Virus record (IMG/VR): IMGVR_UViG_3300036820_000011 | Location: 1-64,000 of that record | Reading direction: 5' to 3' (one strand) | DNA: 64,000 bases | Source of the DNA: a virus | Part shown: positions 7,890-32,300 of the stretch, piece after piece | How positions within the stretch are numbered: position 1 is the stretch's first letter | Layout: every line of letters begins with the position of its first letter | Notes under the pieces: model-generated | Told to the model about the DNA's origin: nothing | The model's input: only the letters and a program-made list of their open reading frames with translations | Databases searched by the model: none | Made by a program: the position numbers and the translations under genes

Positions 7890-8785
7890 AAGCACTAGTC
7901 AGCGGTGATCAAGGGTTCTTGGGACGCCATTTCGCCGAGGAGCTGCACCGGCGCGGGTACGACGTGGTCGGCATCGACACCAAGCGCAGCCCGTCCCAGG
8001 ACTGCCGGTCGTGGTTCTCCTCCCCGGCCGGGAAGCGGCACCGGCAGTTCGACCTGGTGGTGCACGCGGCGGCGGTGATCGGCGGCCGGGTGAAGATCGA
8101 CGGTGATCCGCTCGCCACGGCAGCGAACCTGAGCATCGACGCCGAGATGTTCCGCTGGGCCGGGCTGACCAGGCCGGGCCGCGTGATCTACTTCTCCAGC
8201 TCCGCCGTGTACCCGGTTGACTACCAGACCGAGCACGGCGGCAGACTGCTGGCCGAGCATGCCGCCGACCCGGTGGATCACCCGGACGGGGCTGTCCGGT
8301 TCCCGGACCAGGTGTACGGCTGGAGCAAGGTCGTCGGCGAGGTGCTGGCCGACCGGCTCCGCGCCGCCGGAGTGCCGGTCACCGTGGTGCGGCCGTTCTC
8401 CGGCTACGGGGCCGACCAGGACGAGGACTACCCGTTCCCCGCGTTCGTGCGCCGGGCGCGCGAGGGCCAGGACCCGTTCGAGGTCTGGTGCGGGGAGTGC
8501 GTCCGAGATTTCGTCCACGTGGACGACATCGTGGCCCGGACCCTGGCGGTGGCGCAGGACGGCACCACCGCGCCGGTCAACATCTGCACCGGCATGGGGA
8601 CCTCGTTCAACGACCTGGCGGCGCTGGTCTGCCGCCGGGGCGACCGGCTGCGGATCAGGGCGCGGCCCGACATGCCGACCGGCGTCCGCTACCGGGTCGG
8701 CGACCCGGCCCGGCTGCGGCGGCTGACCGGCGACCTGCCGATGATCAGTCTGGAGGAGGGCGTCGCACGGGCGCTGGAGACCTGA
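7883..8785 (+). CDS. NAD-dependent nucleotide-sugar epimerase/dehydratase
   Basis: GDQGFLG Rossmann motif, FSSSAVY, YGWSK (YxxxK), RPFSGYG, RDFVHVDD. Confidence 0.92.
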   Translation: MVKALVSGDQGFLGRHFAEELHRRGYDVVGIDTKRSPSQDCRSWFSSPAGKRHRQFDLVVHAAAVIGGRVKIDGDPLATAANLSIDAEMFRWAGLTRPGRVIYFSSSAVYPVDYQTEHGGRLLAEHAADPVDHPDGAVRFPDQVYGWSKVVGEVLADRLRAAGVPVTVVRPFSGYGADQDEDYPFPAFVRRAREGQDPFEVWCGECVRDFVHVDDIVARTLAVAQDGTTAPVNICTGMGTSFNDLAALVCRRGDRLRIRARPDMPTGVRYRVGDPARLRRLTGDLPMISLEEGVARALET

Positions 8786-8981
8786 TAACGCTTGCGTCAC
8801 GATGCGGAGCCCGTCCGGACGAGAAGATCGTCCCGGCGGGCTTCGATCATGTTACGCCATAAAGAATCTTGAAAAACTTACAAAGCTGCACGTCAGAGCG
8901 TTGCCGGAAGTTTGACAGACCCTTCGGTCTTTGAGATAGTTAAATCAAGCAAGAGAGAACGACAGACCAACAAACGAAGAT
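8784..8981 (+). promoter_or_regulatory. Terminator + strong promoter module, copy 1
   Basis: Hairpin 8806-8844; AT-rich 44-bp core 8861-8904; TTGACA (8912)-N17-GATAGT (8935) with extended TGn. Confidence 0.8.
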
Positions 8982-9390
8982 CTCAGCCCGGTTGGAAGAA
9001 CCGTCGATCAGAAGTCTTGATCCTCCAGATTGTCACCGGCACTACATCCGGACATGGCGTCTGCGACGACCCCGCGAGGGAGAGCAGATGGGCACAGGGG
9101 ATGAGTATTCAAATCAAGACTTCACCGAGCGAAGCGGCTGGTATGTCCCACCGGCGCTCGAAGACGTTGCACCACCGCACAGAGCCGAACGCCTCCCCGG
9201 TCGAACCGGATTGCAGGCACGGTGACAGCACAGAGCCCCGCGTCACGATCACGGTGTACGCAGCGAAGCAACGCGGGGCACGGGACGCGCGCACCAGATG
9301 ACCGGATCAAGGGGTAGCAGTGGCTGTGATCCGTCGGTCCCCCGGCATGGTGCGCGCGTCCTCCTGCACGACCACTGACGAGAGGAACCG
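8947..9390 (+). ncRNA. Putative long structured leader RNA
   Basis: About 450 nt without a credible CDS; 11-bp helix GAAGTCTTGAT (9011)/ATCAAGACTTC (9113) encloses nested hairpins, including CCC-GCGA-GGG. Confidence 0.5.
9235..9282 (+). repeat. Repeated structured motif A, copy 1
   Basis: GCCCCGCG..hairpin..GTACGCAGCGAAGCAA-CGCGGGGC-ACG; copies at 12027 and 13367. Confidence 0.8.
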
Positions 9391-9393
9391 ACC

Positions 9394-9594
9394 ATGTCGA
9401 ACTTCCAGTACCAGCCCAGCACGATCAGCCAGCACGCTGCGTACATCGGGCGGGAGCTGGCCGCAGGGCGCTTCGTCCAGACGACTTTCGACCCGGCCGA
9501 CGGAACGATCACCGGGATCGTCGGCGTCGAGCCGCGCAGCGCCTTCGCCGACCAGGTGACCGCAGCGGCCGAGCGCCGGGCCAGTACCCGATGA
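9394..9594 (+). CDS. Hypothetical early protein
   Basis: RBS GAGAGGA and start-associated motif. Confidence 0.7.
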   Translation: MSNFQYQPSTISQHAAYIGRELAAGRFVQTTFDPADGTITGIVGVEPRSAFADQVTAAAERRASTR

Positions 9595-9797
9595 GCAGCG
9601 GCGTCGCCTGTCCTGACAAGGACCACCGGCCTTCGTGGCGGGTGGTCCAGTACCACTGCAACCAATCGGTCTTCAACGGCGGTCGTATCACCCGGTCGCC
9701 GTACTCGCTCCTGCGCTGCGGCACCTGCGACGCGGCCTGGCGCACGAAGGCCGCGTACGTGGAAGAGATCGTCAACCGAAAGGGAATCTGGTCATGA
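9591..9797 (+). CDS. Small Zn-ribbon-like protein
   Basis: C..H, CGTC; ATGA overlap. Confidence 0.65.
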   Translation: MSSGVACPDKDHRPSWRVVQYHCNQSVFNGGRITRSPYSLLRCGTCDAAWRTKAAYVEEIVNRKGIWS

Positions 9798-9988
9798 CCA
9801 TGAGCCGCAAGTACTACCGCGAGGCAGCCGAGAACCTGAACCGGCAGCTGCGCAACTCCACACCGGTCACGATCGACGCCAAGGCACAGACCATCAGGGA
9901 GACGGCAGACGACCTCGCGGGCATGTTCGCCCGGGACAACAGCGCCTTCTCCCGCAGCCAGTTCATGGACGCGGTGTACAACAAGTGA
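9794..9988 (+). CDS. Conserved small phage protein
   Basis: MSRKYY...FARDNSAFSRSQF pattern; ATGA overlap. Confidence 0.65.
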   Translation: MTMSRKYYREAAENLNRQLRNSTPVTIDAKAQTIRETADDLAGMFARDNSAFSRSQFMDAVYNK

Positions 9989-10098
9989 TCCACCCGCCTC
10001 CGAACACGCCGCGAGGGTGCCCGATCGAACCGGGCCGGAGGCACGCAGCCCGCTCCCGTCCGGGAGGCGGGTCCGCCGCACGACCGAGAGGGTACGCC

Positions 10099-11355
10099 AT
10101 GGCCATCGACGTCAACGACCGCTTCGCCGCGAACAAGATCGCTCAGCTGGACAGCGACCGCAACGCCGGAATCCGCGCCGCCGCCTCCGCCGCCGAGCGG
10201 ATCGAGCGCCTGGACGCGATGGTCGCCGAGGGCAGGGCCCGGGTGAGCGGCGACACCTACACCGTCACCGAGGGCTGGGACGCGGGCGAGACGTTCACCG
10301 TCGACCGCAACGCGACCACAGGTGAGCTGATCGAGGTCACCGCGAACACGGGCCTGGACCTGCGGGCCGACGGCAGCACCGCGCTCTACCTCGCGGGCAG
10401 GCCCGCGTGGCACTCGCTCGGCCAGCTGATCCCCGAGGGCACCGCCGACATCGAAGAGGCGTTGCGCCTGTCGGGCAACGACTTCGACGTGGCCAAGGTC
10501 CCCAGTTCGTTCGAGTTCGAGGGCAGTGTCCTCCAGCAGCCCGGCCGCTTCACCACGGTCCGCGTGCAGCCGGGCCACCCGCTGCACGGGTCGCCGCTGG
10601 GGTCCGTGGGCGCGGGCTACACCCCGAGCCAGAACCGCGACGCCTTCGGGTTCCTGCAGGAACTGATCGGCGACATGTCCGCTGTCTTCGAGTCCGCCGG
10701 GTCGATGCGCAACGGCGCGAGCGTGTTCGTCTCGCTCCGGCTGCCGCAGACCGTCACGATCGACCCCGAGGGGATCAACGACGAGATCGTGCCCTTCGTG
10801 ATGGTCCGCAACACCCACGACGGCACCGGGTCCTTCCAGGCGATGACCACCCCGTGGCGTCCTGTCTGCAGGAACACCGAGGGCTTCGCCGTGCGCGACG
10901 CCCAGCGGATCTGGAAGATCCGCCACACCGCCGGGATCACCGACCGCGTGAAGGAGGCCCGCCGGGCGCTCGGCATGTCGGTGACCTACTTCGAGGCGTT
11001 CGCAGCCGAGGAGACCGCACTGGCGCAGACGGACATCGACCTGGACGGCTTCCGAGCCCTGCTCGACACCCTGTGGGAGCCCGAGACGGACGAGACGAAG
11101 AAGGCGTCGCTGACGATCGCCGCGAAGCGGACCGAGACGCTGATGGGCATGTTCGGGACCGAGGCCGGAAACCTGGGCCGCACCGCGTACGCGGCCGAGC
11201 GGGCCGTGACCGGCTACCTGGACCACGTCGCGCCCCGCCGTCCCGGCAGGACCATGACGGAGGAGATCGCCCGCGCCTCCGCCCTGCTGCTCGACACCGA
11301 CGGCGAGACCAAGAGCAAGGCGCACCGTCAGTTGATGACGCTGACCAACCGGTAG
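10099..11355 (+). CDS. DUF932 domain protein
   Basis: PAWHSLG, YTPSQN.DAF.FL, FESAGSM.NG..VF, NTHDGTGS, RPVCRNT, IRHT. Confidence 0.88.
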   Translation: MAIDVNDRFAANKIAQLDSDRNAGIRAAASAAERIERLDAMVAEGRARVSGDTYTVTEGWDAGETFTVDRNATTGELIEVTANTGLDLRADGSTALYLAGRPAWHSLGQLIPEGTADIEEALRLSGNDFDVAKVPSSFEFEGSVLQQPGRFTTVRVQPGHPLHGSPLGSVGAGYTPSQNRDAFGFLQELIGDMSAVFESAGSMRNGASVFVSLRLPQTVTIDPEGINDEIVPFVMVRNTHDGTGSFQAMTTPWRPVCRNTEGFAVRDAQRIWKIRHTAGITDRVKEARRALGMSVTYFEAFAAEETALAQTDIDLDGFRALLDTLWEPETDETKKASLTIAAKRTETLMGMFGTEAGNLGRTAYAAERAVTGYLDHVAPRRPGRTMTEEIARASALLLDTDGETKSKAHRQLMTLTNR

Positions 11356-11440
11356 CCGTCTGAGTGCACATGATCGGGTGCGGCCCTGCGGGGCCGTCCC
11401 CGTTCACGGGTGCTCAGCCCGACCACTGACCGAGGAGGGA

Positions 11441-11626
11441 ATGACCGTGTCCGAGATCACGATCACCAACCGGAACACCAAGGAAGAGATCACGCTGCAC
11501 GGCCTGAGCCGGTACGAGGTGCAGGTGCTCGCCGACCTCGTGACCCCGGTCAACGCCGACTGGAAGTACTTCTCAGACGGCGCTGTGCCGCCGACCAACA
11601 AGGCCGTCCGGACACGCGGCAACTGA
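11441..11626 (+). CDS. Hypothetical protein
   Basis: RBS GAGGAGG. Confidence 0.6.
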   Translation: MTVSEITITNRNTKEEITLHGLSRYEVQVLADLVTPVNADWKYFSDGAVPPTNKAVRTRGN

Positions 11627-11686
11627 CCCGCTGTCAGTGTCCTCTGACACCGTGGGACCGACGATCACTCGACCAAGGAGCAGACC

Positions 11687-12019
11687 ATGATCATCACTAG
11701 CTACGGCAGTTGGAACAACTACACCCACTACAACACGTGCCCGGGTGCGGACATCCTCGACGTCATCAACGGCGGCGACTCCGAGTGGCAGCAGCGCATG
11801 GAGGACACCGGCGCGCTGAACGCGATCGAGACCGAGTGGTGCGCCGCCATCCAGGCCGCTCTGCCCGAGGGTGTCACGCTGACCGGGGACGAGTTCATCG
11901 GACCGCACCACGCCGACCCGGCCTACAGCGACGAGATCGCCGAGTTCGATATCAGGGCCGCCATCGAGGACATCGACCTTCAGGCGATCATCGAGCGCCA
12001 CGACGTCGACAACACCTAA
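11687..12019 (+). CDS. Highly acidic hypothetical protein
   Basis: RBS AAGGAG; D/E-rich, no Lys. Confidence 0.75.
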   Translation: MIITSYGSWNNYTHYNTCPGADILDVINGGDSEWQQRMEDTGALNAIETEWCAAIQAALPEGVTLTGDEFIGPHHADPAYSDEIAEFDIRAAIEDIDLQAIIERHDVDNT

Positions 12020-12026
12020 TCGGTCA

Positions 12027-12075
12027 GCCCCTCGCCGTGCACCCCGGCGTACGCAGCGAAGCAGCGCGGGGCACG
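12027..12075 (+). repeat. Repeated structured motif A, copy 2
   Basis: GCCCCTCG-CCG.TGCACCC.CGG-CGTACGCAGCGAAGCAG-CGCGGGGC-ACG. Confidence 0.8.
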
Positions 12076-12107
12076 TACCGACCGACCACTGATCGAGAGG
12101 AACCGCC

Positions 12108-12404
12108 ATGGCCAGTATCCAGCAGCTCACCGCAGCGGCAGCGAAGGCGGGGTTCGTGCGCACCGAGTGCGCCCACCTCGACTCCCCGCACCACCTGGTG
12201 TTCGACTACCCGGAGCCGCTCAGCGAGGACCGTATGCGTCCGCCGTTCTTCCGGGTGCACACCGACACCGCCCGGGTGCCGCACGCGACCTACATCCACG
12301 GGGGCGGCTCCGACGATGACGTGCCCGTCGAGCAGCGCACCACGCTGGTGCACGCGATCACGTGGATGGCGGAGATCGCCAGGCAGTACCCGAAGGAGGG
12401 CTGA
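12108..12404 (+). CDS. Hypothetical protein
   Basis: Start-associated motif and RBS. Confidence 0.7.
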   Translation: MASIQQLTAAAAKAGFVRTECAHLDSPHHLVFDYPEPLSEDRMRPPFFRVHTDTARVPHATYIHGGGSDDDVPVEQRTTLVHAITWMAEIARQYPKEG

Positions 12405-12405
12405 G

Positions 12406-12630
12406 ATGCCCTACTGCGCGGACGACATCGTGATCGCCACGGTGCCCGGGGCGGGCATCCGCCGCGTATGGCTGTGGAAGCCCGCCCGGGGCGGCTGGCT
12501 GGTCAAGGATGTCAACGGCACCCCGTACTGGGTGGACACCGGCGGGATCGAGAGCGTGGCCGCCTACCGGCTGCGCACGGGGTCCGGGCTGCTGCCCGGC
12601 GAGAGGAGCACGCATGCAGACGATCACTGA
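12406..12630 (+). CDS. Hypothetical protein
   Basis: RBS GGAGG; high-GC3 ORF. Confidence 0.55.
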   Translation: MPYCADDIVIATVPGAGIRRVWLWKPARGGWLVKDVNGTPYWVDTGGIESVAAYRLRTGSGLLPGERSTHADDH

Positions 12631-13066
12631 CCAGCTGGTCGCCTCCGGGGCGAAGGGCCTGACCCTGCACTCCCCCTGGGGTGACCTGATCGCACTCAAG
12701 GCCAAGCAGGTCGAGAACCGCAGCTGGCCGACCGACTACCGGGGGCTCGTGCTGATCCACTCCGGACTGCGGCACGACGGCTGGGCCGAGCGGGACGAGC
12801 ACGTCCGCACAGCTCTGCCCGAGGACTACGACCCGGCCGGGAACGCGGGCACGGTCGTCGCGGTGGCCCGGCTCGCCGACTGCCACCGCGACGCCGGGTG
12901 CTGCCGCCCGTGGGGCGAGGCCGGTCTGTGGCACTGGGTGTTCGCCGACGTGCACCGGCTCACCACCCCGATCCCGCAGCGCGGGGCGCAGGGGCTCTGG
13001 AGCGTGCCCGTCTCGCTGCTGCTCGGCGTCGTCACCGGGGTCGAGCGGGCCGCCAGCGGTCGATAA
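12614..13066 (+). CDS. ASCH domain protein
   Basis: GLTLHSPW..LI...K.VENRSWPT.YRG.VLIHSG ... RGAQGLW. Confidence 0.88.
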   Translation: MQTITDQLVASGAKGLTLHSPWGDLIALKAKQVENRSWPTDYRGLVLIHSGLRHDGWAERDEHVRTALPEDYDPAGNAGTVVAVARLADCHRDAGCCRPWGEAGLWHWVFADVHRLTTPIPQRGAQGLWSVPVSLLLGVVTGVERAASGR

Positions 13067-13260
13067 CGCTTCCGTCACAGTCGGGGACCGCCGGAGCGGA
13101 TGTGATCACTCCGGCGGTCTTCGATCTTCTGATCGCCGAAAGAATCTTGAAAAACTTACAAATCTGCACGTCAGAGCGTTGCAGCAAAGTTGACGAGGTC
13201 TCGGTTCTTTGAGATTATTAAATCAGAGCGAAGAACACAGACCAACAACTGAACAAGATC
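13062..13260 (+). promoter_or_regulatory. Terminator + strong promoter module, copy 2
   Basis: Hairpin 13084-13122; core 13139-13182 matches copy 1 at 43/44; TTGACG (13190)-N17-GATTAT (13213). Confidence 0.8.
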
Positions 13261-13445
13261 GCCGGTGATAGGGAACCGGACATCCCAGAGATAAGGCCCC
13301 CGGAAAGGCTAAGGCTGGGAGGGACGGGAGAGTCGGCGAACCCGATAGGCGTCCATGAGTGAACAAGCCCCGCATACGTGATCACGACGTACGCAGCGAA
13401 CGCAACGCGGGGCACGTAATGATCGACACCACTCGCACGGACGAA
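13225..13445 (+). ncRNA. Putative structured leader RNA 2, including motif A copy 3 (13367-13416)
   Basis: Consecutive hairpins CCGGT/ACCGG, TCCCAG/CTGGGA, GGACG/CGTCC; shares CCGG..CCGGACAT and ATGAGTnnnCAA with leader 1. Confidence 0.5.
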
Positions 13446-13456
13446 GGAGTCTTCTG

Positions 13457-13717
13457 ATGACCAAGAACTTTGAACTTGTCACCATAAGTGAGACCCAGGC
13501 CCGTGTTCTCCGGAGTGCCAGTTGGTACAGCTACGTATGGTTCGCCTACAACGTCCGCAGCAGCTCGTACATGACTTTCCACAAGTTGTATGCGCTGGGA
13601 CTTATCGAGAGCCCTTTCGCAGGTTCCGCCTTGACGGCCAAGGGAGCGGCGCTCCGTGATCACCTGGTCAAATTCCCGGCCGCCGGAGGATCGGTCATCC
13701 TCAACTGGGAGGACTGA
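13457..13717 (+). CDS. Hypothetical protein (lower GC, possible winged-helix)
   Basis: RBS AAGGAG; KLYALGLIE...LTAKG pattern. Confidence 0.6.
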   Translation: MTKNFELVTISETQARVLRSASWYSYVWFAYNVRSSSYMTFHKLYALGLIESPFAGSALTAKGAALRDHLVKFPAAGGSVILNWED

Positions 13718-14627: not shown

Positions 14628-14812
14628 ACTATCTGCCCATCGCCTGTGACGAATGCGGGAAGCCGCTCCGGGCCGATCTCGACACTCGCGTCCAGTGCTC
14701 CGAAGGACACTCGGTTCGGATTGAGGATCTGCGTGCGGAGTACACCGCATTGATCAGGAACGGTGAGTGGGTGACCACCTCTTATTCTCTCGATCCCGCC
14801 CTGTACGACTGA
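14624..14812 (+). CDS. Small Zn-ribbon protein
   Basis: CDECG...C..GH; ATGA overlap. Confidence 0.55.
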   Translation: MNYLPIACDECGKPLRADLDTRVQCSEGHSVRIEDLRAEYTALIRNGEWVTTSYSLDPALYD

Positions 14813-14831
14813 CACTCGAAAGGAATTGATC

Positions 14832-15029
14832 ATGAACAAGCTGGAGAACGAGGCCACGATGATCGGCAAGTCCCGTGGCTGGGACCACGCCAACTACACC
14901 GCCGCCTACGGGGGCGACCCGCACGCCGCGCCCGAGGTGCCCGCACGATACGCCCCGGTGCGGACCTACTTCACCGCCGCCTATGCGGAAGGTGTCCAGC
15001 AGTTCCTGGACGACGACCACGACGACTGA
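14832..15029 (+). CDS. Hypothetical protein
   Basis: RBS AAAGGA. Confidence 0.6.
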   Translation: MNKLENEATMIGKSRGWDHANYTAAYGGDPHAAPEVPARYAPVRTYFTAAYAEGVQQFLDDDHDD

Positions 15030-15163
15030 TCCACCGCACAGCCGGACCGGCCCCGACGCGTGGCGAAGGGGCACCTGGAGAGACGGCATCACACGGCACG
15101 CCGTCGAGCGGGGTCCGAATCCTCGCCGGTTCACGCACGACCACCGACCCGAAGGAGCAGCCA

Positions 15164-17286: not shown

Positions 17287-17609
17287 TGGCCGGAACACCG
17301 CTGCGCCTGTGCGGCGGCTGCAACCGCAACTTCCTGACCTGGGCAGCGAACCGGCCCGGCACGGACATGTACCTGTGTCCGGCGTGCACGGCGAAGCTGC
17401 CGCAGTGGGACCCGCAGCCATGGGCACCCCGCGAGATCGGCCGCCGTCTCGTCAGTGACGAGTGCTCACTGACCACCGACAAGCGCCGCCACCGGGTGAT
17501 CGCCCGGGACGGGGACGCGGTCACCGTGGCACGGTACCTGTACCCCGGGCTCGGTACGCCGTTCACCGTCCGTCTGTCCGCTACCGTGCCCGTCGTCTTC
17601 GGGCAGTGA
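17286..17609 (+). CDS. Zn-finger protein
   Basis: CGGC...CPAC; TGATG overlap. Confidence 0.6.
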   Translation: MAGTPLRLCGGCNRNFLTWAANRPGTDMYLCPACTAKLPQWDPQPWAPREIGRRLVSDECSLTTDKRRHRVIARDGDAVTVARYLYPGLGTPFTVRLSATVPVVFGQ

Positions 17610-17736: not shown

Positions 17737-17949
17737 ATGCTGTCGAACACCAACCGGGACCGCAGGGACGAGGCGAACCCCGATCTGGCGTGCACCGCCT
17801 GTCGGGGCATCCTGCGCTGGTACGGCCACGGCGGTGTCGGCTATCTGCACATCCATGTGAGTGGTCCGTCCCGGGGGAAGTTCTTCGGGACGGACCACCC
17901 GGTCCCTGAGAACCAACGGCACAATCCGAGAAAGGACCACCGGTCATGA
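17737..17949 (+). CDS. Hypothetical Cys/His protein
   Basis: CTAC...H...H. Confidence 0.5.
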   Translation: MLSNTNRDRRDEANPDLACTACRGILRWYGHGGVGYLHIHVSGPSRGKFFGTDHPVPENQRHNPRKDHRS

Positions 17950-21231: not shown

Positions 21232-21633
21232 GTGCCGCACATCGACTCGTACAGGATCAGGGAGGTAGGTACCCGGGCCGGTCTGCGGATCGGCCCCCAC
21301 TACCGCACCCCGCAGGACGACACGGCGCTGGTCGCCGTGTCCCGCTCGGCCTCCGACACCGGGATATCGTTCCTGCTGGAGCGCGACCAGGTCGCCCCGC
21401 TGGCCGACTTCCTGGCCAGCGGCGGCCAAGTACTCGCCTGGGAGACCGCGTCCCGGACCCTGACCGTCCACCGCTCCGGCGGTTCCTGGCGGTGGTCCGT
21501 CGGGAGCAGCACCGTCGACGGGTCCTCGCGCAGCGTCTGCCTGGACCGGGCGCAGATGCTGGAGCTGGCCGACTGGCTCTCGCACATCGACGCCTTCGGC
21601 TGGGCCGGATGGAAGTCGGGTGTATCCGCATGA
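21232..21633 (+). CDS. Hypothetical protein
   Basis: Start-associated motif GAGAGGAAAC. Confidence 0.65.
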   Translation: MPHIDSYRIREVGTRAGLRIGPHYRTPQDDTALVAVSRSASDTGISFLLERDQVAPLADFLASGGQVLAWETASRTLTVHRSGGSWRWSVGSSTVDGSSRSVCLDRAQMLELADWLSHIDAFGWAGWKSGVSA

Positions 21634-27485: not shown

Positions 27486-30400
27486 TCAGACCCCCGGGAT
27501 CAGGCCACGGAGGCGGCCGTGCTGCTTGGCGTCCTGGAGCGCGGAGATCAGCCAGTTCTGCAGCTCGTGCCTGCTGCCGACCGGTCCGTGGAAGTGGGCG
27601 TGCACGTGCAGTTCCCCGCCGCCCGCCGACTGCCCGGGGCCGAGCACCCGCTCCGGCCGCCCGGTGCCGTTGTTGGCGATCGAGCGGCCGACGGGGAGGT
27701 AGCCGCCGGAGTCGTACCAGTTGTTGCTGTTCCCGGTCAGCATCGGCTGACGGTCCTGGCGCATGGTCCACGAGCCGAGTTCCGTGGTTGCGCACCACAC
27801 GGACTCGGTCCCCGCGTCCCCGGTCCGGATGCTCTCACCGCCCAGGAACGGCTTCGCCTCCCGGATGGCCACACCGGTCCGAGGAGTTGTGCAGCCCAGA
27901 TTGCTCCGGCCGCTGCGCTTCCACTCGGTCATGGCAGGGCGCTTCCCGCTGAGGTAGACCGCCAGGACGATGGCGTCCTGCTGCGCACCGTCCGCCTGCG
28001 AGTAGCTCTTCCCCCCGGAGTAGTGGCCCTTCCCCAGAATCGGCCCTTCCTGGATCTTCGTCACGCCTTCCGCCCCGAACACCCCGCGTAGGAAGGCTTC
28101 CCGCTGCGGCTCGGACAGCGATAGGACGAAGGGGACCGGATCGGCATGGTCGTACCCACTGCGCCTGAGCAGTTCCGCCGACCACGGCCGGTGAAACTCC
28201 CAGGTGGTCAACGGGAGTCCCGGCTCCCCACTGGGCTTTGTCATCGGGCGCACGGTACGGGTGAACGGGAGTCCGGACACCAGCGACTCGATCGCCTTCA
28301 CGTGTTCCGGCTTGGACTGACCGAGCCGAATGGACGGCCGGGACCCGCGAAGGGTCCGCCAGTGCGTGCTGTTCGGCGTACGACTCTTGGGCTTGATCAC
28401 CCAGCCGTCGCCCAGGACCCATCCCAGCAGCTCGGCTTCCTGCAAACTGACCGAGGCGTTTTCACCGACATCCGACGGTGCGGCGAGTCGAAGGGTGTGC
28501 CGAGTGGTGATCTTCTGTGCTTCCACGAAGACGTCATCAGTCCGGAATTCGTTCTTGGTGCGTCCGCCAACACCCTTCCGGCCGACGTGCTTGCGGTGGA
28601 CCGCCACCCATCGGTGGTGCGGAGTGCACACCGCGTGCCATGTCTTGTTGGTGAGTCGGACCACTGGGACGTCATCATACCGGTGAATGTCCGTGACCCG
28701 GGTCCACTCATTGCGTTCGGTCCCGGGGTTGTACCCGACCGTCATGTCTCCGATCTGGACGTTCTCGTAGGTCAGCCATCCGCGCTGTGTCAGAATCTCT
28801 ACACTCAACGGTACGCACATCTCGTGGGACCAGGCAGCACCCGGAGAGCCGTACCTCCCGGCGATGTAGCCCAGGCCCCAGCGGATCTGGGTCTGGTAGT
28901 TGCTGTGCCAGTCGGGTCCGGCGGATGCCATCTTGTCGGCCGGAAGCGCCTGAGGAATCCCGTAGGCCCCACTGGATGCATTGAGTGCGTTCCAGCGCCA
29001 ACCGCTTTCCTGGTTCCACAGCTTGATCAGCGGGCCCATCTGGTTGCTGCTCCAGTAGTACCGGCCGAGCAGGCTCTGGGCGTAGTTCTGCGCCGCGCCT
29101 GCCGCGACGCCGGAGAAGCCGCCGTTGTTGTTAAGTCCGGAGTTGGCCGATGCGGCTGCGGTGACCGCCGCGTAGATGCTGGCCGCGTTGCTCTGGGAGA
29201 ACGCCTGCGTCCACGCGGCGATATCCCGGGTCACCGTGTTCGAGGTCGGCTCGGTCACGTGGACGCCGACCGCGCCGCCGACGGAGAACTTGCCGATCCT
29301 CCCGGCCTTCACCATCTGGCGCAGGGTCAGCATGGCCTGCTGACCGCCGAGCGCGTTGACCTCGTCCGCCGTCCAGACGTGCTCGCCCTTCGAGAGCCAG
29401 GTTAGGTTCGAGTCGGAGGTGGCCGTGCCGATCCCGCCGACAGGCCCGCCGAACGCCAGGCCGGGCAACCCTTTCTTGTTGCCCGCCGTCGCCGCGTTGT
29501 TGAAATCGACGGAGAGGTTGACTGTCTTGTTCTGGATTCCGCCCAGCGAGGCGTTGACCGATGCCCGGAAGTTGTCGAACGCCTTCTCGGCGGACTTGAG
29601 CTTGCCGCCGACTCCGGGCACCCAGCCGAGCATGTCGGACGCACCGTGGAGTACGTCGCCGACCATGGTCATGAAGCCGTTGACGATGAACCGCAGCGCA
29701 GGCTCGATGCCGTTGGTCCACAGCCACATGAACGCTGATTCGATCGGGTGGATCACGTCGTTGAACAGGAAGTTGTATGCCCCCAGGGCAGCGCTCTGAA
29801 TGACGTGCCATGCGCTGACAAAGAAATTGACGAACGGCCCGGCAAACCAGTTACCGATATTCAGGAAGAAATTGACGAACGGCCCGGTGAACCACCGTCC
29901 AATACTCAGGAAGAACCCGACAAAGGGACCGGTGAACCAGTTACCAATACTCAGAAAGAAATTGACAAAAGGTCCCGTGAACCATCTTCCGATATTCAGA
30001 AAGAAATTGACAAAAGGTCCTGTGAACCAACGACCGATGTCCAGGAAGAACCCGACGAAGGGACCGGTGAACCAGTTCCCGATACTCAGGAAGAATCCGA
30101 CGAAGGGTCCCGTGAACCATCTTCCGATATCGATGAAGAAGTTCACGAAAGGACCGCTGAACCAGCGGCCGATATCCAGGAAGAAGTTGACGAACGGCCC
30201 CGCGAACCAGTTGCCGATGTCAATGAAGAAGTTGACGAAGGGCCCGGCGAACCATTCGCCGATGCTCTCCATGATTGACCTGAACAACTGGCTGTGGGTC
30301 CACGCATACGCGAATCCTGCCGCCAGGGCGGTAAGCCCGAGCACCACCAACATGATCGGGTTGGCGTCCATGACAAGATCCAGCGCGCCTTGGGCGATCG

Positions 30401-32300
30401 TCTGCAACTTGGTCGCCACTGTAACGATCCCGCACCACAGATTGTAGATCTTGAGGGCGATCCCACCAGCGATCATTTGGATATTGAGCAGTAGCAGGCC
30501 CGCAGTAAACACACCGATGGTGATGGCCAGCGAAGTGATCAGCGTCTTGTTCTGGGCCAGAAAACCAGTGAGCCCCCGGAACGCCGGACCGATCACATTG
30601 TTCAGGGTCACGCCTACCAAGGACAGTGCCGGGCCGAGAACATCTCCCACCAACTGCGCCAGCGGGGAGATCATCTGAAGCAGCGGGTTGATGAAGATCG
30701 TCAGATTCCGGAACGAGGGGATCACAGTGTTGTCGATGAAATTCGCGGCGATCTTGAACGCACCGGTCACGATCGGCATACCGACCGAGACGACAGTCTG
30801 AATCACGCCGAGCACGTTGGAGAAGACACCCCCCACGGCTGGGAGCCCCTTGGTCACGATCTCTTTGATCACCGTGACACCGGTGGACATGATCGACTCT
30901 ACGCCTTTGAACGCTATGGACGCGATGGAGCCAATCGAGGCGAACGAGGAGCTGAACTCCTTCGTCAGCTGTGAACCCATGCTTGCCGCCGGATTGGCCA
31001 CCGATGTCGTCGGCATGAGGGACTTGTTGACCCCGCCCCGGTTCAGGGTCATGGCCGGAGCCATCTGCGCTTTGGTCGTCGTCCCGAAATTGCTCTTGAA
31101 AAACCCCCCCATGACCTGGGTCAGGGTGTTGAGCCCGGACTGGATCGCCTTGGTGGGGATCATGTTGACCATGGCAGTGGTGACCCGGCTCGCGGAGGGG
31201 ATCAGGGTCGTGTTCAGGAAGGTCACGAACGCGGTGACCGGCGGGAGCAGCGCCTCACCGACCTTGATCCCGAAGTCCTCCAGATTGGTCTTCATCATCG
31301 CGAACTGAGCCGACAAGGTCTTCTGCTGCGCGGCCACAGCGGCGGGCAGGTCTCCAGCAGTCTTGTTGATCTGCACTAGCTTGCCCTGGAGCACACTGTA
31401 GTTCTGGACCAAGGCCTCGATGGTCGAGGCCGACTTACCGCCGCCGAACGCCTTGGACAACAGGATGCCCTGCTGGGACAAGGACAGGCCCGACTTGTCC
31501 AGTGCCGCCTTCAGCAGGCCGATGGTGCCGACCAGCCCGGCGGGGGAGCGCATCTCGTTCGCCATCTGTAGCCCGGTCAGGCCGATCGTGGCCAGCTGCT
31601 TGGCCGCTGTCGCCGACGGAGCGGCCAATAGCGAGAATGAGGTCTTGAGCCGGGTGGCCGCCTCCTCCGCCCCCTGGCCGGAGTCGGTCATCAGCGCCAG
31701 GGCCGCACCTACCTGGTTGAGCCCGATACCGAAAGTTTTCGCCGCCGGAAGGATGCCTGTGCCGACTGCGCCGACGAATTCGGTCATGGTCATGTTGCCT
31801 GCGCCGATGATGGCGTTGACCGTCCCGGCCGCTTCACCGAAGGTCTGTGCACCCTTGATGCCGGAGCGCCAGGCACCGGCCAGAGCGTTGGTCGTCGCCT
31901 CCAGGTTCGACCCGCCGACCGAGGCCAGGTCGGATGCGACCTTCAGGTCCTTCATCGCCGTAGTGTTGTCGAGTCCGACCGACTTGAGGTGGTAGAGCGC
32001 TTCGGCCAGCTGGTCGGGCCCCTGTTGGGCCGTGGACAGATTCAGCACCGCGTTGCTCAGCACCTTGACGTCGGCCGCCGACCCGCCCGCCTGAGTCTGG
32101 ATCTTCAGCATGGCGTTGTTGAAATCGTTGGCCATGTGCACGGTGACGGCCGCTGCCGCACCGACGGCCAGCACGGCGGTGGCGGCCCCGGCCAGGCCGA
32201 TGCCCACCTTCCCCAGGGACGTCTCGGCGTCGGCGGTGTCCGCCGTGATCGCGATGTAGCCGATCCCGAGCAGGGTCCCCTTGCCGATGCCGAGCGCCAT
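27486..32300 (-). CDS. Tape measure protein with SLT lytic transglycosylase domain and intein
   Basis: 1604 aa Ala/Gly-rich with W/F repeats; LWNQESGW...A.N.SSGAYGIPQ...QIRWGL.YI.GRYGSP. Confidence 0.93.
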   Translation of the reverse strand: MALGIGKGTLLGIGYIAITADTADAETSLGKVGIGLAGAATAVLAVGAAAAVTVHMANDFNNAMLKIQTQAGGSAADVKVLSNAVLNLSTAQQGPDQLAEALYHLKSVGLDNTTAMKDLKVASDLASVGGSNLEATTNALAGAWRSGIKGAQTFGEAAGTVNAIIGAGNMTMTEFVGAVGTGILPAAKTFGIGLNQVGAALALMTDSGQGAEEAATRLKTSFSLLAAPSATAAKQLATIGLTGLQMANEMRSPAGLVGTIGLLKAALDKSGLSLSQQGILLSKAFGGGKSASTIEALVQNYSVLQGKLVQINKTAGDLPAAVAAQQKTLSAQFAMMKTNLEDFGIKVGEALLPPVTAFVTFLNTTLIPSASRVTTAMVNMIPTKAIQSGLNTLTQVMGGFFKSNFGTTTKAQMAPAMTLNRGGVNKSLMPTTSVANPAASMGSQLTKEFSSSFASIGSIASIAFKGVESIMSTGVTVIKEIVTKGLPAVGGVFSNVLGVIQTVVSVGMPIVTGAFKIAANFIDNTVIPSFRNLTIFINPLLQMISPLAQLVGDVLGPALSLVGVTLNNVIGPAFRGLTGFLAQNKTLITSLAITIGVFTAGLLLLNIQMIAGGIALKIYNLWCGIVTVATKLQTIAQGALDLVMDANPIMLVVLGLTALAAGFAYAWTHSQLFRSIMESIGEWFAGPFVNFFIDIGNWFAGPFVNFFLDIGRWFSGPFVNFFIDIGRWFTGPFVGFFLSIGNWFTGPFVGFFLDIGRWFTGPFVNFFLNIGRWFTGPFVNFFLSIGNWFTGPFVGFFLSIGRWFTGPFVNFFLNIGNWFAGPFVNFFVSAWHVIQSAALGAYNFLFNDVIHPIESAFMWLWTNGIEPALRFIVNGFMTMVGDVLHGASDMLGWVPGVGGKLKSAEKAFDNFRASVNASLGGIQNKTVNLSVDFNNAATAGNKKGLPGLAFGGPVGGIGTATSDSNLTWLSKGEHVWTADEVNALGGQQAMLTLRQMVKAGRIGKFSVGGAVGVHVTEPTSNTVTRDIAAWTQAFSQSNAASIYAAVTAAASANSGLNNNGGFSGVAAGAAQNYAQSLLGRYYWSSNQMGPLIKLWNQESGWRWNALNASSGAYGIPQALPADKMASAGPDWHSNYQTQIRWGLGYIAGRYGSPGAAWSHEMCVPLSVEILTQRGWLTYENVQIGDMTVGYNPGTERNEWTRVTDIHRYDDVPVVRLTNKTWHAVCTPHHRWVAVHRKHVGRKGVGGRTKNEFRTDDVFVEAQKITTRHTLRLAAPSDVGENASVSLQEAELLGWVLGDGWVIKPKSRTPNSTHWRTLRGSRPSIRLGQSKPEHVKAIESLVSGLPFTRTVRPMTKPSGEPGLPLTTWEFHRPWSAELLRRSGYDHADPVPFVLSLSEPQREAFLRGVFGAEGVTKIQEGPILGKGHYSGGKSYSQADGAQQDAIVLAVYLSGKRPAMTEWKRSGRSNLGCTTPRTGVAIREAKPFLGGESIRTGDAGTESVWCATTELGSWTMRQDRQPMLTGNSNNWYDSGGYLPVGRSIANNGTGRPERVLGPGQSAGGGELHVHAHFHGPVGSRHELQNWLISALQDAKQHGRLRGLIPGV
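27729..28817 (-). mobile_element. Intein with LAGLIDADG homing endonuclease (363 aa) in tape measure
   Basis: C-VPLSVEILTQRGW...CTPHHRW...LLGWVLGDG...FLRGVFGAEG...VWC.TT..G.W...TGN|S. Confidence 0.9.
29813..30263 (-). repeat. 10 x 45-bp (15-aa) tandem repeat in tape measure
   Basis: IG[RNE]WF[TAS]GPFV[NG]FF[LIV][DSN] x10. Confidence 0.9.

Follow-up and report, generated by a model that had tools for sequence, protein, structure and literature searches.

Motif A is an intergenic element present in three copies near the start of the genome of an uncultured soil actinophage (IMG/VR record IMGVR_UViG_3300036820_000011; 82,852 nt, 82.9 kb), of which the first 64 kb, here called the window, were analysed. 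By analogy, the closest described system is that of the plant mitochondrial t-elements and acceptor-stem-like stem-loops, and it is for this reason that a role as a processing or stability signal is proposed below; the nearest described actinophage phenomenon, again by analogy, is the start-associated sequence (SAS) and extended SAS (ESAS) of Cluster K. A few same-strand RNA elements are found downstream of the early promoters and after an early gene in phage lambda (nut, consisting of boxA and boxB) and in HK022 (put), and in T7 the RNase III sites between the early genes cut the polycistronic RNA and leave stabilising 3′ hairpins. Ingham, Hunter and Smith (1995) reportedly described U-less hairpin terminators in the early region of phiC31.

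In plant mitochondria, t-elements and acceptor-stem-like stem-loops serve as RNase P/RNase Z signals for messenger RNA (mRNA) ends; real tRNAs occur alongside them with this function, and the ends were mapped experimentally (Forner et al. 2007, PMC1920247). The ESAS of Cluster K are imperfect 17-bp inverted repeats, 4–13 bp apart, beside the 13-bp SAS at the start codon; a hairpin in the mRNA was, in the authors' view, poorly supported (Pope et al. 2011, PMC3203893). Our literature search found no such motif for Streptomyces phages and, by title among the matches listed, no tRNA-like mRNA punctuation in phages.

Motif A occurs in three same-strand intergenic copies

The original prediction, made from the letters alone, had placed three copies of motif A on one strand, between genes and upstream of them. 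The exact positions were confirmed (Table 1), and their number is far above chance: the 12-mer GTACGCAGCGAA occurs three times at up to one mismatch against 0.28 expected, the pattern of arm, gap, arm and ACG three times against 0.02 expected, and in both cases none of 100 shuffles reached three. The whole record contains three forward and no reverse copies, the control giving 0/0. All copies fall into gaps of the open reading frame (ORF) map (8786–9393, 12020–12107 and 13067–13456 for copies 1, 2 and 3, respectively), intergenic calls being taken from a map based on G+C content at third codon positions (GC3), a crude filter and not a gene finder. Within the untranslated leader of the first early operon, copy 1 is found after about 288 nt, with the next start codon 111 nt downstream of it; copy 2 begins 7 nt past the TAA (12017–12019) of a 110-aa gene and ends 32 nt before ATG 12108; and copy 3 is preceded by about 142 nt of the second early operon's leader, its end being 40 nt short of ATG 13457.

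Copies 1 and 3 are assigned to long leaders because sigma70-like promoters sit in two copies of a 122-nt repeat (8826–8947 and 13104–13225, 78% identical, one promoter in each); the promoter scan gave 2 sigma70-like sites against 0.3 expected. Long GC hairpins (8805–8845 and 13080–13125), not called by the terminator scan, precede the two repeats. The leaders look non-coding, with a GC3 of 0.57–0.58 against about 0.9 in genes, and a 45-aa ORF in leader 1 (9088–9225) was rejected as a gene on its GC3 of 0.57. It was also noticed that a perfect 13-bp inverted repeat (9283–9295 and 9349–9361), enclosing about 53 nt, lies directly 3′ of copy 1 and before the ribosome site of the gene at 9394.

Table 1. 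Coordinates of motif A, its tRNA-like relatives and associated early-region features (window coordinates unless a contig is named)
Feature	Position	Strand	Description
Motif A copy 1	9235–9282	+	48 nt; 77 bits (model R1)
Motif A copy 2	12027–12075	+	49 nt; 71 bits (model R1)
Motif A copy 3	13367–13416	+	50 nt; 76.2 bits (model R1)
Class B mini tRNA-like element	9996–10045	+	7-bp stem GCCTCCG/CGGAGGC, core-like ACGCCGCGAG
Cloverleaf tRNA-like element	15044–15136	+	Between two small early genes; 7-bp acceptor-like stem, D-like arm, middle arm with 12-nt loop, T-arm, then A + CGCA
tRNA-shaped element	G002 17788–17861		71 nt; 7-bp stem, 4-bp D-like arm, 4-bp arm with 12-nt loop, T-arm loop TTCGAGT
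tRNA-Val gene	G001 L064:5806–5879		Acceptor GCCCCGG, G.T first pair, no encoded CCA, trailer T-CGCAG
sigma70-like promoter, first early operon	8912–8940	+	TTGACA, 17 nt, GATAGT; TG before second hexamer
sigma70-like promoter, second early operon	13190–13218	+	TTGACG, 17 nt, GATTAT; TG before second hexamer
Leader segment just 5′ of copy 3	13260–13360	+	About 90% conserved in three phages (89.9%, 91%), more than surrounding coding DNA
A/C-rich translation-initiation module	12076–12107	+	Begins at ACG after stem; type ACCGACCACTGA..GAGAGGAACC..ATG

Distribution of the motif

Among all collections searched (IMG/VR patterns, 185,579 species genomes, JGI metagenomes, named phages by blastn, and covariance model R1), true copies of motif A were found only in the window phage and two related viral contigs, IMGVR_UViG_3300037258_000283 (G001, 66 kb) and IMGVR_UViG_3300029951_000013 (G002, 88.9 kb), the latter being syntenic with the window phage at 65–80% identity. 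G001 has one copy, identical to copy 3 at 50/50 positions in a leader that is 89.9% identical around it, and G002 has an ortholog of copy 2 together with a diverged copy at 14779–14826. These copies are referred to below as class A. A covariance-model search had been suggested as a check of the motif; model R1, run on the three phages, the locus of provirus G003 and 16 loci of relatives, separated the six seeds (64–77 bits) from the next best match at 19.4.

Patterns applied to viral contigs returned true copies at 2/2 loci and then at 2/7, and none of 50 matching loci in bacterial genome contigs, many of them in coding DNA, had the 5′ arm. Metagenome contigs gave two loci, the G002 contig again and a chance match, and blastn against named phages gave 16 records, all partial and with E of at least 2. 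Four host-type genomes yielded no convincing match among the 150 of about 6000 first-look candidates scored per genome; one match at E 0.25 fell in coding-like DNA and was discarded. Rfam 15 (4227 families) had no match at gathering score over the 64 kb and, at E up to 10 over 8780–13480, four unrelated weak matches, none on a copy. Sequence comparison thus points to motif A as a very narrowly distributed signal, confined to three related phages among the collections searched.

Structure and conservation of motif A

Copy 1 consists of an 8-bp outer stem, a 3-bp inner hairpin with a 7-nt loop, the 10-nt core ACGCAGCGAA and, after the stem, ACG. When the six class A rows were aligned, the outer stem and the inner helix in fixed register were paired in 93.9% of cells, against only 21–64% in slid-register controls, and the inner helix formed in 6/6 copies (CAC/GTG, CGT/ACG, and CGT/GCG with a T.G pair). 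The outer stem followed by ACG was therein recovered as had been described, except that copy 2 has a T-C mismatch and copy 3 an A-C mismatch at the eighth pair; over the six rows it shows three kinds of mismatch and one T.G wobble (in the G002 ortholog of copy 2), and T.G wobbles occur for the + strand only. The compensatory inner stems of the original prediction (CAC/GTG, CCG/CGG and ACGT/ACGT) fared less well, as they do not lie in one register relative to the invariant block, and what remains of them is the 3-bp helix. Nor is the 12-mer reported as invariant strictly so: it is altered by G9265A in a close strain, and has diverged in one copy of a relative. A three-way junction is a weak possibility, its third helix having only 2–3 pairs in the minimum-free-energy folds of copies 2 and 3.

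The arms are 29–33 nt apart, the spacing varying by 1–2 nt, and the copies are 48, 49 and 50 nt in length. In 6/6 class A copies a stem of 7–8 bp is followed by an unpaired A, as in an acceptor-type stem; the sequences after the stem are ACGGGAC, ACGTACC and ACGTAAT in copies 1, 2 and 3, respectively, with no T-run. The flanks of the three copies are unrelated, and the 27–30-nt 3′ half differs among them by one base and one inserted base.

The core in other scaffolds and a graded series of tRNA-like relatives

Across the three phages, the exact core ACGYAGCGAR has seven occurrences, every one of them on the + strand and within these leader or intergenic elements, and it has none in 17 loci of more distant relatives. 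In two G002 leaders behind the same promoter type, it forms the 10-nt loop of plain hairpins whose stems (six perfect pairs in one, 8/9 in the other) are unrelated in sequence. The core-loop hairpins at G002 14962–14989 and 17478–17499 (ACGTAGCGAG) each have GAACAGCGCG some distance upstream.

The early region contains further elements that resemble a tRNA or parts of one. In the class B element, which starts 7 nt past a TGA stop (9986–9988), a 5-bp hairpin with the 7-nt loop ATCGAAC abuts the 3′ strand of the stem and is followed by an unpaired A and CGCA, and the core-like string is a one-mismatch version of the core. Its predicted geometry is that of a tRNA acceptor stem plus T-arm, a three-way junction is predicted, and in the G002 ortholog (15091–15139) the stem is kept paired through changed pairs. 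The cloverleaf element is 85% identical to its G002 counterpart (21326–21416), with one T-stem pair differing on both sides and two on a single side, and it gave a sub-threshold match to the tRNA-like mascRNA (16.3 bits, E 0.94). The 5-bp arm with 7-nt loop, which also abuts the 3′ strand of the stem in the cloverleaf elements, matches or nearly matches the T-arm motif GGTTCRANYCC (quoted in PMC1920247) in both these and class B. The tRNA-shaped element of G002 starts 14 nt past a stop codon. At the end of this series, G001 has genuine tRNA genes, among them a tRNA-Val with a stem like that of motif A and a trailer like those of class B and the G002 tRNA-shaped element, and the next start codon, about 28 nt further on, lies at a similar short distance.

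In ten elements, 67 of the 70 cells of the 7-bp stems pair, and positions 2, 3, 4, 6 and 7 show compensated change between classes. Placement is shared as well: six elements start 7–14 nt past a stop codon (copy 2, its G002 ortholog, G002 14779, the class B element, G002 17788 and the cloverleaf), three class A copies are in non-coding leaders behind sigma70-like promoters, and 32–40 nt separate 4/6 class A copies from the next start codon. For 13 tabulated elements, this distance is 27–64 nt in ten and 111 nt in one, with no start within 130 nt in the remaining two. At the slot of copy 2 in more distant relatives, a perfect GC hairpin of 8–18 bp follows the stop in 7/17 loci (two of the seven identical in sequence), namely those in which the 110-aa homolog ends at the conserved C-terminus.

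No new members were found with patterns for class B, the cloverleaf, the leader segment and the hairpin variant, two matches to the last of these being in coding DNA and therefore set aside. A loose search for RGGCAC-ended hairpins lacked specificity (25/91 sites on the + strand, 11/69 on the − strand), and in a noisy loose T-arm scan only the strict class (5/5 and 7/7 pairs) was informative. Relaxed ARAGORN was likewise regarded as non-specific because it made 256 calls at 80% thresholds.

Beside the class B element, a 64-aa ORF (9794–9988, GC3 0.92) has its stop directly before the element. This makes ATG 10099, in place of GTG 9985, the probable start of the DUF932 gene; over the region 9985–10098, G+C content at second codon positions is 0.78. 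The A/C-rich module behind copy 2 belongs to a ribosome-loading type (GCACGACCACCGACC..AGGAG..ATG) common to many early genes, with or without the motif. Within the conserved leader segment 5′ of copy 3, a hairpin with the arms CCGGT/ACCGG has CCGGC/GCCGG in G002; the segment, which has no Rfam match, may be a separate structured RNA.

Motif elements at mosaic junctions

Homology between the window phage and G001 stops exactly at 13416, the end of copy 3. A strain about 98% identical to the window phage was recovered from soil runs X2/X3, which, like X6, provide DNA contigs only, their uncovered parts being uninformative. This strain retains copy 1 with the single core change noted above; it is missing 9392–9791, a 400-nt piece that takes out two small genes, each end of the gap falling at a start codon; in place of the sequence between 11610 and 12057 it has 528 different letters, with homology resuming inside the core of copy 2; and past 13232 it has a different leader, that of copy 3 being absent. 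A short X6 contig likewise begins to match at 12057. Because homology breaks at 13416 in G001 and within the copy 2 core in X2/X3, the motif elements mark seams of module exchange. The X2/X3 strain also has an 18-nt in-frame insertion behind 9975.

A possible role in early mRNA processing and the alternatives

The sequence family, its placement, its strand bias, its conserved pairing and its link with mosaic junctions are established here. Strand specificity, variable arm spacing, wobbles, pairing that survives sequence change, the presentation of one core by different scaffolds, and a fixed slot after stop codons and before ribosome-loading modules all argue for an RNA element over a duplex DNA site. 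On this point the original prediction, which had regarded the motif as RNA-like and confined to one strand, is borne out against a symmetric DNA operator: the copies vary in length, T.G pairs fit the + strand, the same core stands on different stems, and relatives carry plain hairpins. The reading to which we lean, with a little less than even confidence, is that motif A acts in cis as an RNA punctuation mark, in leaders or between cistrons, by which early polycistronic mRNAs are directed to processing or stabilisation. Transcription, cleavage and the identity of the factor are what we infer in proposing it.

The graded series, from a real tRNA through cloverleaf-like elements, stem plus T-arm and branched stem to plain hairpin, suggests an acceptor-like function for the outer stem of motif A; the 7–8-bp G+C stem, unpaired A and CG-rich trailer would imitate the acceptor end of a CCA-less tRNA. 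Membership in a family with tRNA-like elements would indicate tRNA-processing enzymes rather than Cas6e. A host endonuclease reading acceptor-like stems would then cut, RNase P at the 5′ foot and, behind the unpaired A, RNase Z or some other enzyme, so as to take off the long leader or part the cistrons. The downstream message would keep a defined A/C-rich ribosome-loading region and the upstream message a protective 3′ stem, and the 10-nt core may be a single-stranded recognition patch for that enzyme or for a phage or host protein. A more far-reaching version, which we regard as unlikely, is that this phage clade has turned tRNA genes into graded punctuation cut by host RNase P/RNase Z, so that early messages would be translated and stabilised separately, the core adding factor-specific control, as a counterpart of the mitochondrial t-elements.

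Several observations weigh against a processing role. Class A consists of six copies, about four of them independent, with two pairs changed on both sides and a covariation score reached by 42/500 shuffles; no outer-stem pair is changed on both sides within the class; and folding energies are ordinary for the composition (z = −0.72, +0.16 and −1.77 for copies 1, 2 and 3, respectively). Because the covariation statistics are weak and the energies ordinary, motif A alone is only modest evidence for an RNA fold. Class A has no T-arm abutting the 3′ strand, only 4–5 nt separating the core from that strand, and its inner hairpin, being on the 5′ side, is the mirror image of a tRNA minihelix, so that it would not be a standard substrate of RNase P or RNase Z. 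Homology between class A and the class B and cloverleaf elements is limited to short shared strings (stem, core-like 10-mer and trailer). Default ARAGORN made no call in the window and did not call the cloverleaf-like elements of G002 either, and Rfam recognises none of these elements as tRNA. Finally, the strong conservation of the core is left unexplained by processing.

An alternative that we consider doubtful, but not far-fetched, is that of a regulated attenuator, in which the U-less, terminator-like stem stops host polymerase in the leaders or between genes and so delays the downstream early genes, until a phage factor bound to the core opens the stem or confers termination resistance in the manner of lambda nut or HK022 put. 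Two copies in leaders behind both early promoters and one after a gene recall the layout of nutL and nutR, plain GC hairpins are found at the copy 2 slot of relatives, and an alternative helix of 3–4 bp (best flanking stems 4, 4 and 3) could show the core as a loop and open the inner part of the outer stem; this helix, however, is very short. The U-less terminators reported for phiC31 also speak for an attenuator. None of the copies is followed by a T-run, the terminator scan made no call at any of the three sites, and the G+C-rich stem encloses 29–33 nt with a hairpin of their own instead of the short loop of an intrinsic terminator. Mycobacterial polymerase is reported to require a U-tract at intrinsic terminators (PMC3993855). 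Nor is the phage short of canonical terminators, since T-tailed hairpins exist elsewhere in these phages, such as that at 746–769, and Pfam and PHROGs scans of 60 ORFs recognised no antiterminator, sigma factor or RNA polymerase. The position of the motif at mosaic junctions (13416 in the comparison with G001; 12057 in X2/X3 and X6) would suit a double-stranded DNA site, be it an operator, partition-like or recombination site bound by a phage protein, or a shared recombination linker, but any conserved function would also be expected to bring about junctions at conserved intergenic blocks as a by-product. Such a site is decidedly unlikely: the interior is asymmetric, the spacing of arms 29–33 bp apart shifts by 1–2 bp and would rotate the half-sites, 7/7 exact cores and 6/6 copies are on the transcribed strand, and a kept loop on differing stems is expected of a hairpin and not of a duplex.

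We give little credence to a functionless relic, that is, decaying remains of duplicated leader cassettes or phage tRNA genes kept alike by recent duplication or gene conversion, even though the family is limited to three related phages, the promoter cassettes are duplicated, G002 has a decayed-looking copy after the conserved leader, and the X2/X3 strain lacks the leader of copy 3. A near-identical 3′ half of 27–30 nt between unrelated flanks, the complete identity of copy 3 in G001 within a leader of only 89.9%, and stems that stay paired while their pairs change between classes would hardly be expected of decay. The small ribozyme among the original suggestions found no support, no Rfam family out of 4227 matching the region even at E up to 10, and a ligand-sensing or self-cleaving RNA built on a three-way junction with a conserved core is very improbable. 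Its size, its unpaired conserved core, the leader position of two copies and the junction predicted in class B (weakly in copies 2 and 3) would agree with a riboswitch or ribozyme, but no expression platform can be seen, given that the ribosome site does not pair with the motif and that copy 2 is placed between two genes; moreover, the core also occurs as a simple hairpin loop, a change that a catalytic or ligand pocket would not tolerate. Scarcely credible is an RNA anti-CRISPR decoy mimicking a type I-E repeat hairpin, an idea that had been raised on the G+C-rich outer stem, the only feature in its favour. As judged by geometry only, without comparison to real repeats or Cas6e sites, there are 29–33 nt within the arms instead of a short loop, the copies do not form an array (the distances between them being 2792 and 1340 nt), and the 3′ flank is part of the general ribosome-loading module.

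If RNA punctuation is the correct explanation, the phage would recruit host tRNA-processing machinery to organise its early mRNAs, tRNA genes would have been caught within three related genomes at several stages of reshaping into processing signals, and one of many unexplained conserved intergenic motifs of actinophages would have a function; a compact, portable processing signal for the engineering of Streptomyces operons would also be at hand. If it is not, motif A still marks module boundaries in this clade cleanly and in a strand-specific manner.

Phage, host and neighbouring genes

The block of small genes occupies the + strand from 1 to about 22.7 kb of the window, the head and packaging genes lie on the − strand from about 41 to 54 kb, and genes for a family-A DNA polymerase and an SNF2 helicase are outside the window, farther along the record. 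The capsid protein has only 25–28% identity to those of named actinophages, and the relatives of the phage are Streptomyces-type prophages. Since homologs of the 110-aa protein encoded just 5′ of copy 2 are found in genomes of Streptomyces, Kitasatospora, Actinocrinis and Nocardiopsis, the host probably belongs to this group. A phyletic profile for trans-acting factors gave about 12 ORFs common to the three phages and missing from provirus G003, with no informative Pfam match. Pfam also had no match for ORF 12509–13066, which corresponds to the ASCH protein that the original prediction had put forward as a candidate binder.

Elsewhere, 8–10 tandem 45-nt repeats (29776–30309) were noticed within a 1604-aa ORF (27486–32300, − strand), presumably the tape measure gene. 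At 72935–73308 of the record, a region that takes in a small Cys-rich ORF together with the first part of the following ORF is 95% identical to G001, which far exceeds the genome average; it looks like a module exchanged recently.

Comparison with known systems

Motif A resembles the terminators reported for phiC31 in that its G+C-rich stem lacks a T-run and is found right after stop codons, in the early region of a phage of the Streptomyces type; it differs in its large structured interior and conserved core, and 2/3 copies precede the first gene of an operon. With nut and put it shares the presence of a few same-strand elements after early promoters or a gene and a small purine-rich loop on a stem, whereas no N-like or Nus-related component was identified in the Pfam/PHROGs scans, there is no sequence likeness, and copy 1 is about 288 nt from the predicted transcription start. 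The T7 RNase III sites are comparable as a handful of intercistronic stems with conserved unpaired interiors, but the 8-bp stem of motif A is short for RNase III, and its tRNA-like relatives suggest other enzymes.

Like the Cluster K SAS/ESAS, motif A is actinophage-specific, of one orientation, tied to translation starts and conserved across related phages, and some SAS also have upstream inverted repeats. Unlike them, it has arms of 7–8 bp, 29–33 nt apart, around an asymmetric conserved interior, three copies instead of dozens, a distance of 32–111 nt before the start codon and no sequence likeness, so that it is not a member of that family (PMC3203893). The mitochondrial t-elements come closest: in both cases, non-canonical tRNA-like structures or bare acceptor-like stems are found in long transcripts beside mRNA ends, these being predicted here from sequence alone, and the phage clade shows a graded series in comparable slots. 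In contrast to the t-elements, motif A combines a conserved 10-nt core with an inner hairpin on the 5′ side, and its setting is a bacteriophage (PMC1920247).

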